Origin: an uncultured bacterium
GTDB taxonomy: Bacteria; Patescibacteriota; Minisyncoccia; Phycocordibacterales; PALSA-1337
Direction: 5' to 3'
NCBI GenBank assembly: GCA_963851055.1
Contig: CAWKMY010000005.1
Location: forward strand, 78,716 to 110,953
Length of the DNA: 32,238 nt
Shown: in pieces, positions 15,556 through 21,613 of the stretch
Numbering within the stretch: the first letter of the stretch is position 1
How the letters are laid out: each line of letters opens with the position of its first letter
Position numbers and translations under genes: made by a program
The notes under the pieces: generated by a model
The model's input: the letters and a program-made list of their open reading frames with translations, nothing else
The model's database searches: none
What the model was told of the DNA's origin: nothing

Positions 15556-16375
15556 CACATTATCCCCCTATCACTAGGAGTGTAGACTATATCTTTATCC
15601 GTTTTGCCAATTCGGCAAAATGAGGATGTTGGCGTATTACCTATGCGTATCTGCCACCACCTTCAGTTGTGATGACTTTCCAATAGCACATAAGTCCATT
15701 TTCTGGCATAGAGCCATCGAATAAGTCGTTACGGGGTCAAACCTAACATCAGCAACAATTCATTTTTCGTCTTCTTTTTCTTGGTGACGTAATTCTCCTT
15801 CTGAATCACCAGGATGAGATCGACGAGTTTAACGAGTTGCGCATCACTTAGCATCTTGAGTTTAGTCTTCAAAAGGATTTGGCAGGCCTCTTTCAAGGCT
15901 TTTGCTTGAATCCTCTTGAATCTGATATACGGCAACAAACTTGTCAGAATCTCTCTGACCTGTCTGTAACCATTTATTCTCAATTCGGTCATCCCATCAT
16001 TTCTTTTGGAAATATAACCGATATTGAAGACGTCTCTAATCCAATAGAGATCATCTTCGTGTCTGGAATCCTGATAGAAACAGATCGTCGGCATAAATCT
16101 TAGTTTAGATCTATTACCGTCTTTCCGCTTTTTGAGCTGGAGCATAAGGCTCCCGTCACCATCTAGGAATCCCGCGACATATGCATATTTGACATTAGAT
16201 CGACTTCCCACGGTATTGTCTTGAATTTATTGGTCCTCAAGTGTTACATACACTATTGTATCTCTCCCGACGGACCGTCGCAAGAAAGATTATCAACGGA
16301 TACCGATACATTCAAGATTCCACCGTTATTAGCCACATTGTCATCATGGATTACTCCATGAAGTAGCAATACTTT
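15556..16375 (-). mobile_element. group I intron (820 nt) after U2656 (E. coli numbering), in the sarcin-ricin loop
   Basis: Exons read ...gattctagU | intron ...ataatgtG | acgagaggacc, which restores AGUACGAGAGGACC. An S-like element aaagatatagtcta lies at 15583-15596. The junction could shift by 1 nt because of a shared A. Confidence 0.7.
15729..16211 (-). CDS. single-motif LAGLIDADG homing endonuclease, I-CreI-like
   Basis: 160 aa with a GTG start. YVAGFLDGDGSLMLQLKK and IGYISKRNDG...LLPYIRFKRIQAKALKEACQIL parallel I-CreI (YLAGFVDGDGSIIAQIKP ... LQPFLKLKQKQANLVLKIIEQL) as I recall it. Confidence 0.85.
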   Translation of the reverse strand: MGSRSNVKYAYVAGFLDGDGSLMLQLKKRKDGNRSKLRFMPTICFYQDSRHEDDLYWIRDVFNIGYISKRNDGMTELRINGYRQVREILTSLLPYIRFKRIQAKALKEACQILLKTKLKMLSDAQLVKLVDLILVIQKENYVTKKKKTKNELLLMLGLTP

Positions 16376-16438
16376 ACTAGAATCAAACCCCCTCAAGCAT
16401 CAACGCCTGCAGTAGATAGGAGACCAACCTGTCTCACG

Positions 16439-16842
16439 CATGTTACCAACGATTACTCGTTGCATTGGACTATAGCTTAATCCGCTCATTTGATTGAGTG
16501 TGGATCGTTAACGTTTAGTCTCTACGGGCATTGAATCGCAGTAAACCGTAAACGGTAAACTGTAATCAACTTCCCTCGGTATAACCCGCTTTAAACGGGC
16601 TCCACCGAATCTAGTTAACTTGATCTTCTTGTATTACTACAAGAGACCGCCGTGGTTGATTGGTCATTCCTCTCTCTTTACATCATCTCAATGCGATTTC
16701 GCATATGAAATGTTCAATAAAACGAAAATTCTCGAAGTGATTCAGACTGTCGAATATTCAATTCGCAGTCAATGTGACTTCACACATTTACATAGGATTA
16801 ACACTCTCTATGGTCAGCCATCGAAGCATAATTAAATGCTCA
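16439..16842 (-). mobile_element. ORF-less group I intron (404 nt) after U2593, the classic I-CreI / Cr.LSU site
   Basis: Exons read ...gggttcagaccgU | tgagcattt...ggtaacatG | cgtgagacaggttgg. An R-like ccgtagagactaaac lies at 16513-16527 and an S-like aagctatagtcc at 16467-16478. No LAGLIDADG ORF is present. Confidence 0.75.
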
Positions 16843-17171: not shown

Positions 17172-17837
17172 TTAGGCATTTCTGTTACCCATTTTGTTTT
17201 GCATTGAAGGAATTTGTGAAGTATATGGTTCAATCAAATCTCTGAATCTTTCAGCTGATTCTGATTTTATATATAATCTCCAGTATTTTCCTTTTTGTGC
17301 ATGAAGACTTGTCTCGAGTTCAAATTTCTTTTTAAGGGCTTTTTGAACCGATTCAAGGTCTTTCTTACTATATCCAAGGGTATGGATTATGAACGTGTTG
17401 TGTCTATTCGACTTCCACGATCCGTCATCCATAAACCATATGGCTAATGCCATTGGATCCAGTAATTTGTTGATCAATTTAGGAATTTCTTTTTTACCAT
17501 GAGGATAGAATTGTTGAGCATAAAATCTAAATGCGCCGTGAGAATATGTATCAAATAATACATACCCATAGCCATTCTTCTTTACCCTCGAACGAATTCC
17601 ACCTGGTATCCATTCCTTAAACTGATCGTGGATCCATTCTAGATAGTCTCTTTGCGCTACTTGATGTTCAATCTTGAGCCGATAAGTTTTACCCTTATCT
17701 TGCGTCTCAAGGTGACCATCACCGAGCAAAGTACCGACTAAAATAGATCTTTGAACATCATTCAGCGTGAGAGTCTTTTTCAACTCTCGAATTTCTTTTG
17801 TGTTCATTGGGTTCTTACTATTACTAGTAAGCTTCAT
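17172..17837 (-). CDS. double-motif LAGLIDADG homing endonuclease, I-SceI-like
   Basis: 221 aa. LVGTLLGDGHLETQDKGKTYRLKIEH and LDPMALAIWFMDDGSW...LKKKFELE parallel I-SceI ([39 protein letters not shown]...LRNKFQLN). The last 5 nt, including the TAA stop, lie in the 3' exon. Confidence 0.85.
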   Translation of the reverse strand: MKLTSNSKNPMNTKEIRELKKTLTLNDVQRSILVGTLLGDGHLETQDKGKTYRLKIEHQVAQRDYLEWIHDQFKEWIPGGIRSRVKKNGYGYVLFDTYSHGAFRFYAQQFYPHGKKEIPKLINKLLDPMALAIWFMDDGSWKSNRHNTFIIHTLGYSKKDLESVQKALKKKFELETSLHAQKGKYWRLYIKSESAERFRDLIEPYTSQIPSMQNKMGNRNA

Positions 17838-18382
17838 GTCGCCATGAAGATCGGACTATATCATCATCCCCTGCAAAATTAATCGCATTGGATGGCTAGC
17901 GTATAGTCTCTGAGGGTTCAAGCATATGTATTGAATAGTGGAGGAGAGCCCAGGCATGGCACGCCATGAGCTCTCCAAAGTGGATCGTAAACTTCTGGCA
18001 AGTATCCGTTTTAACCATTCACGGGTTGGATCGACCCGGTTTTGCTGAACGGATGTTTCCACGACCTCGCCGAGCTGCGTCAGAATTCGCATCATACTTC
18101 TCAACGGATAGCAAATCCGCCAATCCATACGGTAGATCACCCTGACCAACACTCCTAAAGTCACTCTCCACTATTCAATACACATACAAGTCTTCCCTGC
18201 TGATCCTCCGCACTTCAAGATTTTTACTTTGTTCAAGTACTTGAAGATACTCGGATATTCCAGCATATAGCTAACTTTTCAATGGCCATTGCTGACCAAG
18301 GTCCTCCTTTTTTATTTGTTTCGAGATGACAAATCTCTTGAGGCGCCACGGTTCGAGGATTCGAATAAAATCCAAATCCTCG
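17177..18382 (-). mobile_element. group I intron (1206 nt) after U2262
   Basis: Exons read ...ggggcgctatccU | cgaggattt...acagaaatG | cctaaagagtaacgg. P (atatgctggaa, 18258-18268), Q (atcagcagg, 18196-18204), R (cctcagagactatacgc, 17899-17915) and S (atgatatagtcc) elements are all visible. Confidence 0.8.
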
Positions 18383-18724
18383 AGGATAGCGCCCCACTAA
18401 AACTGTCCATCATATACTGTCTCCCGGCGTTTATGCCGCCGAGGTTAGAACATACAAAATTCAAGAATGGTGTTTCATCGACGGATCAATACTCCCCGAA
18501 AGGAACATCTCAAATCCTCCCATCTACGCTACGCATGAATCACGTATGGTCAATACAAAATTACAGTAAAGCTTCTAGGGTCTTTTCGTCTAACTGCAGG
18601 TAACCGGCATCTTCACCGGTACTGTATTTTCACCGAGCAAGTCTCCGAGACAGTTCTCCAGTCATTACACTATTCAACGCGTCGGAACTTACCCGACAAG
18701 GAATTGCGCTACCTTAGGATCGTT

Positions 18725-19503
18725 CTTTTCTTGGATAGCTGTGTAAAACTTTTATATTACTATTTAACAATTATGCTCGTGTTAGCTTCATGTCGCCATG
18801 AAGATCGGACTATATCATCATACTTTGTTCGTCGGTACCAATTTGTGAACAAAATCTGTCTTGCGTATAGTCTCTGAGGATTTTTCTGTTATTAATTCGG
18901 CTATGTTGTACTTTCTCTTTCTGCCTTTGCCTTCATTGAGAGTTTCTCTCAATCGTACAATTTTCTCGAATCCTTCTTTTGTTAGATGCTCCTTTCTAGC
19001 CATCTTTTTGACTATTTCAGAGAAAATCAAGAAGTTCTTCTTTTTATTGGCCGAAAGAAAAATAAAACGGTTGAAAAATGGAATCACCTTTTCCATCAAG
19101 GAATCGATATTCGTCACTTCAAAATAAACTACTCCATCAGATCTTTCGCGTAATGTTCCGCATCCAAATACTTTCTGAATGCGTTCGAGAATCACACGAT
19201 CTTTCTGGGAGATGTTGAATGAAGCGAGTACTTTCCATTTTCCTACATAATCCCGTCTTTTGATCATCGAGATGTTGAAGCTTCCTTCACCATCCGTGAA
19301 TCCGGCAATATAATTGCCGATAGCGAGATCTATGTTATTAAGCCAATGATTATTCATGGCTTAATTCTAACAGAAATCTTTCCTGCTGATTGTCCGCGTT
19401 TCAAAATTTTCACTACTCGAATTGCTTCAAGTGAGTATTTGAACATGCTCGGGGTTTCCAGCATATGGCAAGATTTATTATCGTAACTACAACGATCAAG
19501 TCT
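18725..19503 (-). mobile_element. group I intron (779 nt) after U1917 (helix 69 loop)
   Basis: Exons read ...gtcgtaactaU | agacttgat...ccaagaaaaG | aacgatcctaaggtagcg. P lies at 19456-19466, Q at 19382-19391, R at 18863-18879 and S at 18807-18818. Confidence 0.8.
18818..19357 (-). CDS. single-motif LAGLIDADG homing endonuclease, I-CeuI-like
   Basis: 179 aa. IAGFTDGEGSFNIS, FNISQKD and LMEKVIPFFNRF parallel I-CeuI (LAGFLEGEASLNIS, FNVTQH, LEEKVIPFYEQY). Confidence 0.85.
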   Translation of the reverse strand: MNNHWLNNIDLAIGNYIAGFTDGEGSFNISMIKRRDYVGKWKVLASFNISQKDRVILERIQKVFGCGTLRERSDGVVYFEVTNIDSLMEKVIPFFNRFIFLSANKKKNFLIFSEIVKKMARKEHLTKEGFEKIVRLRETLNEGKGRKRKYNIAELITEKSSETIRKTDFVHKLVPTNKV

Positions 19504-20983
19504 ATAGTTACGACCGACATTCACCAGGGCTTATAACAGTCACCATGTAATCTTGCGACTACACAACGCCGTTATTTGACCTTCTGGCATTGGTCAAGTG
19601 TCACCCCCTATACATCCTCTTGCGAGTTCGCAGGGAGCTGTGTTTTTGTTAAACAGTTGCCAGAGATACTTTAGCTGCGGCCCCTTCCAACAAAATAAAT
19701 TGTAAAAAAGGGCAAGCCTTATTCCGAAGTTACGGCTGCTTTTTTGCCGAGTTCCTTGGAGACCTCTCACTCGTTCGCCTAGGTCTACTCGACCTAACCA
19801 CCTGTGTCGGTTTGCGGTACGGTTTACGTGAAATTATGCTTAGAAAATTTTCTTGGAAGCGTGCTTTATCCTATTTCGCCTTGCGGCATTTTCGCTCTAC
19901 TTGGGGATCATATCGAAATGAGCATCCGGATTTGCCAGGACACACCCTTATAGCACGAACGTTAAATCCAATTATACGCAGGATATACTACGCTTCGTCC
20001 TTCCATCGCATTTCACGCAAGTCACGGAATATTAACCGTGTATCCATCGGGTGCGGCGTTCGCCATCCCCTTAGGACCGACTAACCCTTGGCTGATATAC
20101 ATTGCCAAGGAAACCTTGGTTTTTCGGCGTGCGGGAATCTCACCCGCATTGCGGTTACTTGTGCCAACATTCTTACTTCGCAACGCTCCACTGTGGGTCA
20201 CCCCTTCAGCTTCAATGCGATGCGAATACTCTCCTACCGCTCCGTTTTTCCGAAGAAAAACGAAGCCCTCAGTTTCGGTACGACATTTGAGCCCCGATTA
20301 TCTGCGGCGCGGAATTTCTCGATGAGTAAGCTGTTACGCTATTTTTGAATGATGGCTGCTTCTAAGCCTACATCCTCATTGTCGAAGAAATTCCACCACC
20401 TTACGTACACTTAATGTCGATTTAGGGACCTTAAATTGAGATCCGGGCTGTTTCCCTTTTGTCCAATGGAGCTTAGCCCCCACAGACTAACTGCCGGATA
20501 ATTACCATACGTATTCGGAGTTTGATAGGTCTCGTGAGCTTTCGCCCGTTCGAGACCTTCCAGTGCTCTACCCCGTATGGGTACATCCGACGCGAACCCA
20601 AAAGTTCTTTCGGAGAGAACCAGCTATTACCAGATTCGATTAGCTTATCACTCCTTACCACACGTCATCCGAGAGTTTTGCACGGCTCACCGGTTCGGGC
20701 CTCCATCCCCCTTTCGGGGAACTTCACCCTGCGCATGGCAAGCTCATCTGGCTTCGGGTCTTTAGCAAACTACGAGCGCCCTGTTCAGACTCGGTTTCCC
20801 TGTGACTCCGTCCTCGCGGACTTAGTCGAGCAGCTTGCTAAAACTCGTTGGCTCATTCTTCAATAGGCACGCCATGACGGTGCTACACAATAAGCATCAA
20901 AAAAATGACGCACATTGTGTAGCACCGCTCTGACTCCTTGTAGGCATATGGTTTCAGGTCTATTTCACCGCCCTTTCGGGCTG

Positions 20984-21023
<40 letters not shown>

Positions 21024-21613
21024 TAGAAAAATATTTAGACTTGCCGGTTAGTTCCGGCGGATTCCCCCGAGCTATTCGTTTCCCGGGGTACTTAAGAATA
21101 GAGACAAAGAAGATCCATTATTTTCAGATAAGGGGCTATCACCCTCTGGGGCTCGTCTTTCCAGACGATTCTCCTAATAAAAGATTTTTTGACTTCTCTG
21201 CTATAAATAGCACGTCTCTACCTTGCAACCCTCAACCAAAATCGCATCGCGTTTCCGCTTCTGCCTTTCGACAGGGCGGAAGCCGCCCTGCGATTTTGGT
21301 TAAGTTTAGTCTTCTCCGCGTTCGCTCGCCGCTACTGACGGAATGCATGTTTGTTTATTTTCCTCCTGGTACTGAAATGTTTTACTTCCCAGGGTACGCT
21401 CCTCTATAGAGTAACTATAGAAGTCGTCGAGGTTCACTCGACGGGGTTTCCCCATTCGGACATCTTCGGATCAAAGGTTGCTCGGCACCTCCCCGAAGCG
21501 TATCGCCGCCACGCCGCGTCCTTCATCGCTTTTTCTAGCCAAGGCATCCACCATACGCCCTTAATTTCCCATCAGGAAATCTAAGAACCGCTACTTAATA
21601 TCACTTACATTGC

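Follow-up and report, generated by a model that had tools for sequence, protein, structure and literature searches.

Homing endonuclease genes and group I ribozymes can be mobile independently of each other (the gain-loss cycle): ribozymes of common kinship at separate rDNA sites harbour endonuclease genes that are unrelated and inserted in different peripheral loops, and empty forms occur as well. Among the closest described systems are the L1917 introns of Synechococcus sp. C9, Thermotoga subterranea and green-algal organelles, which are 743-774 nt long and encode proteins of 168-181 aa (PMC1995217). In these introns the reading frame opens in P6, continues across P7, P3 and P8, and extends into the 3′ part of the core (PMC1995217). 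In the accessible part of a survey by Tsurumaki et al. (2024, PMC11270868), rRNA insertion sequences of CPR bacteria occupy fixed 23S sites, designated 23IS6-14 and including position 1917, and encode LAGLIDADG_1 proteins of ~180 aa or LAGLIDADG_2 proteins of ~210 aa. Tsurumaki et al. also describe forms with and without an ORF at one site, with very similar non-ORF sequence, and propose ORF gain or loss (same part of PMC11270868).

The two introns considered here, at L1917 and L2262, lie 342 nt apart in one 23S rRNA gene, which is encoded on the minus strand of the window (the whole stretch of DNA analysed, 32,238 nt) from a Patescibacteria (CPR) genome and is split by four group I introns (Table 1). 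Compared by description with the introns of Haugen et al. (2007, PMC1995217), the L1917 intron has the same site and layout and a similar size (779 nt) and protein length (179 aa), and is alike in its single-motif ORF, absent P2 and complex P5. Its host, a CPR bacterium, is different, and its stop codon is read in J8/7 instead of P9. By its insertion after E. coli U1917 and its core-overlapping ORF that starts in P6, it fits the L1917 intron/endonuclease family. Like the elements in the accessible part of the CPR survey (PMC11270868), both introns are group I introns at fixed 23S sites with LAGLIDADG_1 or LAGLIDADG_2 genes, and they are members of these known kinds. That part of the survey differs in containing no position 2262, no cross-site comparison of cores and no placement of ORFs within the intron structure; the site numbers had no match in the supplement of PMC11270868, and a literature search on an intron at 23S position 2262 returned no relevant publication. 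The L2262 protein matches I-SceI, encoded by the omega intron of yeast mitochondrial LSU rRNA, over nearly its full length (phmmer, E 1e-25), a likeness known from that E-value alone; the host and the rRNA target site differ.

Table 1. Features of the L1917 and L2262 introns (positions in the window).
Feature	Positions	Strand	Description
Group I intron, 23S position L1917	18725-19503	-	779 nt; 19503 is the initial intron base; exon flanks correspond to E. coli 1911-1917 and 1918-1931
LAGLIDADG_1 homing endonuclease ORF (L1917)	18818-19357	-	179 aa; Pfam PF00961, E 2e-21
17-nt block in L1917	18863-18879	-	P6 3′ strand, J6/7, P7 5′ strand (18868-18872), first two P3′ bases
38-nt block in L1917	18784-18821	-	J8/7, P7 3′ strand, J7/9, P9 hairpin (18786-18803) with GCGA loop
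Group I intron, 23S position L2262	17177-18382	-	1206 nt; 17177 is the final intron base; excision restores a 1:1 match to E. coli 2250-2270
Probable internal guide sequence (GGAGGA) of L2262	18302-18307	-	Predicted pairing of AGGA with exon UCCU (P1) and GG with exon CC (P10)
P6 extension of L2262	17924-18185	-	Inverted repeat; 20-bp closing helix 17924-17943 with 18166-18185
17-nt block in L2262	17899-17915	-	P6 3′ strand, J6/7, P7 5′ strand (17904-17908), start of P3′
38-nt block in L2262	17830-17867	-	J8/7, P7 3′ strand, J7/9, P9 hairpin (17832-17849) with GCGA loop
P9.1 hairpin of L2262	17814-17831	-	Between P9 and the start codon; arms differ yet stay complementary in related L2262 introns
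P9.2 5′ strand (ACCCA)	17808-17812	-	Directly before the start codon; predicted to pair with 17187-17191
I-SceI-like LAGLIDADG_2 homing endonuclease ORF (L2262)	17172-17807	-	211 aa; Pfam PF03161, E 1.4e-47
P9.2 3′ strand (UGGGU)	17187-17191	-	Within the last ORF codons, 10 nt upstream of the 3′ splice site

The ends of the introns correspond to E. coli 1917 and 2262, and each intron follows a U and ends in G. In the L1917 intron, P1 is formed between exon AACUAU and intron GUAGUU, with a U.G pair at the splice site, and P10 between GAUCGUU and AACGAUC. All L2262 introns compared have either GGGGG or GGAGG at the guide position; in one of them (G013) the exon changes from U to C and the guide correspondingly from A to G. 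The best candidate guide gives a U-A pair at the splice site here, where most relatives have U.G. The Rfam group I model RF00028 matches L1917 at 18786-19069 (36.1 bits, E 1.8e-6) and L2262 at 17832-18377 (45.3 bits, E 3.3e-9), each alignment spanning model positions 1-253; both scores, lowered by the large insertions (ORF and P6), are under the gathering score of 50. RNA contigs that join 18723 to 19503 omit the 779 nt of L1917, and contigs from three metatranscriptomes that join 17175 to 18382 omit the 1206 nt of L2262; with flanks of just 22-33 nt, these contigs may derive from intron-free relatives. Metatranscriptome depth over the introns is near zero, and this lack of cover carries no evidential weight by itself. 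The maximum share of sampled words found in any sequencing run was 0.30. From the sequence, we infer that both introns self-splice.

The preliminary description of this locus held that the two introns share exact repeats of 38 and 17 nt and one ribozyme scaffold, and both statements are borne out. A repeat search recovered 17827-17867 against 18781-18821 (41 nt with one mismatch, 38 nt identical) and 17893-17918 against 18857-18882 (26 nt at 88%, 17 nt identical). Exactly two copies of the 38-mer are present in the window, against an expectation of 0 from 100 dinucleotide shuffles. The P-Q regions of the two introns align as had been described, at 70% over 114 nt, and the R-to-P9 regions at 72% with gaps in P8. 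Rfam aligns the L1917 38-nt block to model positions 219-253, and places the R blocks and the S-P9 blocks of both introns at identical model positions. The GCGA-looped hairpin noticed earlier within the 38-nt block is P9 in both introns, according to Rfam and RNAalifold.

Comparative evidence supports the same assignment. Base pairing of P3, P4, P6, P7 and P9 is retained across 32 related introns through compensatory substitutions; pair counts over these introns, which represent three sites, give 3-4 pair types per position in P3 and up to 5 in P9, with all cells paired. RNAalifold predicts P7, P8 and P9 from 25 R-to-P9 segments, with compensatory changes in 10 of the 18 pairs. P3 is nonetheless site-specific in sequence: UCUUGC/GCAAGA in L1917, GUUAGC/GCUAGC and variants in L2262, and UCUGAC/GUCAGA in L1931. 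The structural check set beforehand, by Rfam, RNAalifold and pair counts, places the blocks in homologous elements, and the shared blocks are the same core elements of one homologous scaffold in both introns. The L1917 and L2262 introns would form one structural ribozyme family: P3-P4-P5-P6 and P7-P9 make up the core of both, P9 is capped by GCGA and the tail carries UAACA. L2262 would add a P2 region, the P6 extension and P9.1/P9.2. The 17-nt and 38-nt blocks are probably the most constrained parts of the core, comprising the guanosine-binding P7, the strands that join it, and the hairpin P9.

The L1917 ORF scores 77.2 bits against PF00961 (curated cut-off 23.1), and its translation contains a single motif, GFTDGEGSF, with an acidic residue at the motif end. 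Relatives in the PDB include the halves of I-SmaMI and I-OnuI and the homodimeric I-Vdi141I and I-CvuI, and 2378 relatives were found at E<=1e-10. The ORF starts in the P6 loop and passes through P6′, J6/7, P7, P3′ and P8 to a TGA stop in J8/7, and the first complete codon within the 38-nt block is this TGA. The ORF had been placed between Q and R with its stop opening the block; its start and stop agree with that placement, but the reading frame also crosses R/P7, P3′ and P8. The last ~30 codons and the stop of this single-motif enzyme gene would be supplied by the ribozyme core.

The L2262 ORF scores 162.2 bits against PF03161 (curated cut-off 25) and encodes two LAGLIDADG-type motifs, GTLLGDGHL and WFMDDGSW, each with an acidic residue; its TAA stop (17172-17174) falls in the 3′ exon. 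NCBIfam holds no model for either protein. Both proteins appear by sequence to be LAGLIDADG homing endonucleases, from which we infer cleavage activity. The earlier proposal of different endonuclease families in different loops holds for the loops, but the two families, LAGLIDADG_1 and LAGLIDADG_2, are branches of one superfamily rather than unrelated.

The longest L2262 ORF (17172-17837) begins at an AUG (17835-17837) on the 3′ side of the 7-bp hairpin with the GCGA loop. Most of the best 120 protein relatives begin at the equivalent of residue 11, which corresponds to a conserved AUG at 17805-17807, 30 nt downstream and directly after the 5′ strand of P9.2. In homologous introns the P9 arm often lacks an AUG, whereas the downstream AUG is conserved. 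The L2262 start codon is therefore probably 17805-17807. A start within the 38-nt block, as first described, applies to the longest ORF but not to the conserved start, and the suggested competition between folding and an AUG in the P9 arm is not supported by these homologues. A conflict between folding and translation is plausible instead at P9.2, which abuts the conserved start codon.

P9.2 occupies the same position, in at least 4 sequence versions, in 13 endonuclease-bearing L2262 introns, and L2262 introns without an ORF contain P9.2 as a hairpin and continue into the same UAACA...AUG tail. This covariation suggests that a long-range helix, P9.2, forms near the 3′ end and encloses the I-SceI-like gene in its loop. 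The two-motif I-SceI-like enzyme would be encoded in the P9.2 loop, with its stop supplied by the 3′ exon.

The P6 extension of L2262 has a 222-nt interior that is richer in G+C and occupies the loop where L1917 holds its endonuclease gene. Its folding z-score is -6.5. No DNA relative of the interior was found in 300 genomes of the order, a lone 27-nt match (E 8.6e-4) being disregarded, and the 102-aa ORF of the insert has no Pfam match. Related introns have other P6 inserts or none. The idea that the extension is a decayed L1917 endonuclease gene is unsupported in a partial test: intron-to-intron blastn gave no similarity, and the base composition differs.

Kinship was assessed with a tree of 124 core columns, covering L1917, L1931 and L2262 introns from CPR only. 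L1917 introns form a clade with support of 96/97 and L1931 introns a clade with 100/100; L2262 introns are not resolved as one clade. The window L1917 intron is nearest to that of G004 (99% core identity) and the window L2262 intron to that of L050 (90%). The two window introns share 103 of the 124 core positions (83%), and the mean over all L1917 x L2262 pairs is 74%; the most similar pair, from two different genomes, reaches 85.5%. Hardly any variation occurs in the R block across all L1917 and L2262 introns. P3, P2, distal P5, P8 and the tails are site-specific. The scaffold is also common to the L1931 introns of the genus. By sequence comparison, introns group by insertion site with no sign of copying in this genome, and any inter-site move would be old. 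Their kinship is, on this comparison, an old and widespread family relation rather than the product of a recent copy in this genome.

Endonuclease genes are distributed independently of this scaffold. All four combinations of P6 insert and endonuclease gene, each present or absent, occur among L2262 introns, and an endonuclease-free L1917 intron of 337 nt is found in G033. Since endonuclease-free introns occur at both sites, the enzymes have been gained or lost independently of the ribozyme; the independent association proposed from the window is thus supported by the search of related genomes. Compared with other systems undergoing the gain-loss cycle, this one involves three 23S sites in one CPR genus, and the L2262 gene lies in a 3′-terminal P9.2 loop. 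Exchange between site lineages does occur, because the P5 domain of the G016 L1917 intron is 88-91% identical to that of L1931 introns. An old exchange of the P9 block between site lineages may likewise have taken place.

The identity of the blocks is proposed to result from common descent and purifying selection, and no copying event is needed in this genome. A recent duplication or ectopic transposition of one ribozyme within this lineage, for instance by reverse splicing, followed by endonuclease invasion, would also produce a common scaffold and identical blocks, and the existence of endonuclease-free forms would allow invasion after the move. Such an event is improbable, because the tree groups the introns by site, a grouping strongly supported for L1917; both intron lineages recur in many CPR genomes, and the endonuclease families number >1600 members each; and P3, P2, distal P5, P8 and the tails differ by site. 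The duplication or transposition to a second rRNA site suggested in the preliminary description is accordingly not upheld in or near this genome, where introns cluster site-wise and have closer relatives at the same site, but is compatible with an old move.

Recent gene conversion between the two introns could explain why identity is so patchy, with two perfect blocks (R and J8/7-P9) beside an unalignable P8 and a diverged P3′. The introns are merely 342 nt apart in one gene, and the P5 domain of G016 provides a precedent for module exchange between site lineages. Against conversion, the 38-nt block is identical in the L1917 intron of G004 and the L2262 intron of L050 and has one mismatch in the L2262 intron of G005 and the L1917 intron of G045; at least G004 (L1917 only) and G005 (L2262 only) are single-intron genomes. 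In G066, which carries both introns, the P9 sequences differ. The near-invariance of the R block and the finding that cross-genome pairs are as alike as the within-genome pair also make conversion very unlikely. Assembly chimerism, in which an assembler collapsed or swapped the repeat between the two sites, has to be considered for a metagenome-assembled genome with a repeat that exceeds common k-mer sizes. Independent single-intron assemblies hold the same block in the same structural context, and in each intron P7 and P9 are complete only with both blocks. A separate contig from a soil run (X1), a run that may be the source sample, matches 18645-18904 without mismatch, from the exon through the block to R. 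The check for chimerism thus rules out an artefact for practical purposes, and its probability is minimal. The most probable explanation is an old common family maintained by purifying selection, in which each intron is mobile by its own LAGLIDADG enzyme and enzymes are gained and lost independently of the ribozymes. Each intron would move through its own site-specific endonuclease, as predicted from the gene content.

A more extensive proposal is tentative and less likely correct than not. One scaffold may have colonised at least three 23S sites (L1917, L1931 and L2262) in Patescibacteria, forming a pool in which recombination still swaps the P5 module and perhaps P9, with P1/P3, the endonuclease and the tails remaining site-bound. 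L2262 would then represent an undescribed layout, with an I-SceI-like gene in a 3′-terminal P9.2 loop, a start codon that abuts the helix and a stop codon in the exon, such that translation and 3′ splice-site choice would be mutually exclusive.

These findings do not change the understanding of group I introns or homing endonucleases. For annotation, the 221-aa model of the L2262 gene probably includes 10 codons too many. P9.1/P9.2, the start codon and the exon stop are new structural detail for L2262, absent from the accessible part of the CPR survey. The two introns provide a clean, checkable case of a ribozyme and an endonuclease evolving as separate modules in bacterial rRNA introns.

The minus-strand 23S rRNA gene, after which a 5S gene comes next (Rfam), returned four group I intron matches in a permissive Rfam search, each below the gathering score. 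The L1917 and L2262 introns, named for their sites in E. coli numbering, are each preceded by U and end in G, and excision of either leaves a gap-free match to conserved rRNA.

Coordinates of the 23S rRNA gene and of two of its introns in the window
Feature	Position	Length	Strand	Basis
23S rRNA gene	18625-21560 + 18387-18567		minus	Rfam LSU matches
L1917 intron, after U1917	18725-19503	779 nt	minus	exon flanks read against E. coli
L2262 intron, after U2262	17177-18382	1206 nt	minus	exon flanks read against E. coli

The identical blocks of 38 and 17 nt noted in the preliminary description were recovered by a repeat search. The longer repeat spans 41 nt with one mismatch, of which 38 nt are identical, and the shorter spans 26 nt at 88% identity, of which 17 nt are identical; the 38-mer has two exact copies in the window, where shuffles predict none. 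On direct alignment of the two introns, only two stretches can be aligned: P3 to the start of P6 (70% identity) and P6' to P9 (72%, with P8 gapped). The 5' region, distal P5, P6 interior, P8 and 3' tails were unalignable in this comparison. The Rfam covariance model places both copies of the 17-nt R block (P6 3' strand to the start of P3') on the same model positions, and likewise both J8/7-P7'-P9 blocks.

Pairing was counted in 32 introns (8 L1917, 18 L2262 and 6 L1931) from the window's genus and from CPR genomes reached via the L2262 protein, using four fixed windows cut around the conserved core segments P, Q, R and S. Related loci include Candidatus Paceibacterota, Taylorbacteria and the Parcubacteria group, which places the window's small genome among the Patescibacteria (CPR). 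In P3, P4, P9 and the bases of P5 and P6, every proposed pair is formed in 30–32 of the 32 introns, with three to four pair types per position in P3 and up to five in P9. The outer three pairs of P7 are formed in all 32; its inner two are formed in the 26 L1917 and L2262 introns and not in the six L1931 introns. RNAalifold, applied to 25 R-to-P9 segments, predicted P7, P8 and P9 unaided, with compensatory changes at 10 of 18 pairs and no broken P9 pair. By the Rfam model, pair counts and RNAalifold, which agree, the shared blocks are homologous elements, and the proposal of one ribozyme scaffold in both introns holds. The sequence of P3 is specific to the insertion site and fully compensated between sites, as expected if the introns descend from one ribozyme.

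The two introns farther downstream in this 23S gene (15564-16737) have no P/Q anchor match to this scaffold and differ in P9 in the Rfam alignment, so the gene contains at least two ribozyme types. A second, much smaller type of L1931 intron (205–217 nt), found in genomes G006, G025 and G016 (loci L036, L013 and L021), also lacks the scaffold's P/Q anchors.

The identity of the blocks is not recent. Assembly chimerism between the two sites, which the preliminary description had named as a possible source of the identity, is ruled out by genomes with one intron only: G004 has an L1917 intron with an identical 38-nt block and no L2262 intron, and G005 has an L2262 intron with one mismatch in the block and no L1917 intron. 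The identical block also occurs in the L2262 intron of another CPR genome (locus L050). In G066, both introns are present and differ in P9 sequence. In a tree built on 124 core columns, the L1917 introns form a clade (96/97), as do the L1931 introns (100/100), and the L2262 introns are unresolved around the L1917 clade. Identity between the L1917 introns of the window and G004 is 99%, and the window's L2262 intron is nearest to that of L050 (90%). The two window introns agree at 103 of 124 core positions; all L1917–L2262 pairs average 74%, and their maximum of 85.5% falls between different genomes. Recent conversion or duplication in the window's genome is therefore very unlikely, since relatives hold the block and introns group by site, and the suggested duplication or transposition does not stand as a recent event there. 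The R block is nearly invariant in both lineages, and the blocks are therefore the most slowly changing segments of an old scaffold common to both.

The L1917 intron of G016 (L021:578-1274) has a P5 domain 88–91% identical to the L1931 P5 of three other genomes and at most 77% identical to any further intron compared, the remaining L1917 introns among them. The pattern suggests a module swap between introns 14 nt apart.

As first described, the introns carry different endonucleases in different loops; the two enzymes belong to different LAGLIDADG branches. The L1917 ORF encodes a LAGLIDADG_1 protein of 179 aa that starts in the P6 loop and ends at a TGA in J8/7, its final ~30 codons forming the P6 3' arm, J6/7, P7, P3' and P8. 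Its nearest solved structures are halves of the I-SmaMI/I-OnuI type and the homodimeric I-Vdi141I and I-CvuI; I-CeuI is absent from its best 60 matches. The L2262 ORF, near the 3' end, encodes a LAGLIDADG_2 protein with a near full-length match to I-SceI (E 1e-25). Metagenome relatives at E<=1e-10 number 2378 for the L1917 protein and 1656 for the L2262 protein.

Independent association of ribozyme and endonuclease gene was borne out among relatives, where forms with and without the ORF occur at both sites. L2262 introns have neither P6 insert nor endonuclease gene in G017 (388 nt) and G025 (258 nt), the insert alone in G066, G020, G013 and G009, the gene alone in G067, L047, L048 and L053, and both in the window, G005, L049 and L050. 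These four combinations, with an endonuclease-free L1917 intron of 337 nt in G033, indicate separate histories of ribozyme and cargo.

The AUG in the 3' arm of the P9 hairpin (17835-17837), previously taken as the L2262 start, is missing from several related introns (e.g. CAUAGAG in L045). Downstream of P9, related introns have a second hairpin, P9.1, with arms that vary yet remain complementary; a short spacer then leads to a conserved AUG. Among the 120 best protein relatives, most begin at the position matching residue 11 (MNTKEI...), and the window gene's own database entry begins there too. The start codon is therefore likely 17805-17807 rather than 17835-17837. Directly before this AUG, ACCCA (17808-17812) can pair with UGGGU (17187-17191), 10 nt upstream of the 3' splice site. 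Each of the 13 L2262 introns with an endonuclease gene that were examined has a helix at this P9.2 position, and its sequence comes in at least four versions; shuffle tests on single sequences were modest, between 1 and 98 of 500 shuffles doing equally well. In L2262 introns that lack an ORF, a P9.2 hairpin takes this place and the same UAACA...AUG tail follows it. The endonuclease gene thus appears to sit in the P9.2 loop, and the P9.2 helix would return the 3' splice site to the core. The proposed competition between translation start and folding is not supported at P9 but plausible at P9.2, adjoining the likely start. At 17172-17179 the ORF crosses the 3' splice site and stops at an exon UAA that close relatives keep; some distant relatives have their stop within the intron (L055) or an exon with CCC AAA, where the reading frame stays open (L052).

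Small cassettes occupy the P6 loop of other L2262 introns (L032:2056-2319 in G066, L014, L008, L046, L049 and L050), each with a strong ribosome-binding site (AAGGAGG), ATG, an ORF of 42–105 aa and a hairpin. Between genomes these ORFs are unrelated, while the P6 stem that flanks the cassette is conserved and base-pairs with the ribosome-binding site. The window's insert (17924-18185) is unlike these cassettes, being G+C-richer (49%), closed by a 20-bp helix and much more stably folded than shuffled sequences (z -6.5); it contains no clean ORF ending ahead of the core and has no DNA relatives in 300 genomes of the order. With the best candidate guide, GGAGGA (18302-18307), the L2262 splice-site U pairs with A instead of the usual G, as also in G005, L047 and L050; other L2262 introns have GGGGG, giving the usual U.G. 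One compensatory change, in G013, supports this assignment. Intron segment GUGGCGCC (18342-18349) can pair with the 5' exon stretch GGCGCUAU, which lies immediately upstream of the P1 pairing; the intron segment is conserved, with variants AUAGCGCC or AUGGCGCC, in most L2262 introns with a long 5' region.

Contigs of three metatranscriptomes contain a 17175-18382 junction (1206 nt skipped), and those of two of the three an 18723-19503 junction (779 nt skipped); both equal the predicted introns, given 1-nt ambiguity. Depth is high over exons and approximately zero over introns. As flanks are short and no sequencing run holds the organism well, the contigs may come from intron-free relatives, and they only hint at splicing of the window's introns. 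DNA run X1, which may be the source sample of the assembly (571 kb, 6 contigs), contains pieces identical to both introns, one spanning exon, L1917 block and R.

Related ribozymes at different rDNA sites, with different endonuclease genes in different loops, are an established theme. The original observation is confirmed and its interpretation partly supported. The L1917 intron of Synechococcus C9 (Haugen et al. 2007, PMC1995217) has an ORF running from P6 into the 3' core; by this published description, the window's element has the same layout and similar size, and it belongs to the described L1917 intron/endonuclease family. Tsurumaki et al. 2024 (PMC11270868) report that rRNA introns of CPR bacteria occupy fixed sites and carry LAGLIDADG genes, and they also describe ORF-less siblings and ORF turnover. 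The 2262 site is not named in any paper found by literature search. To this theme the locus adds detail on how P9.1 and P9.2 are arranged in the L2262 intron and shows that, within a single genus, three 23S sites carry the same scaffold.
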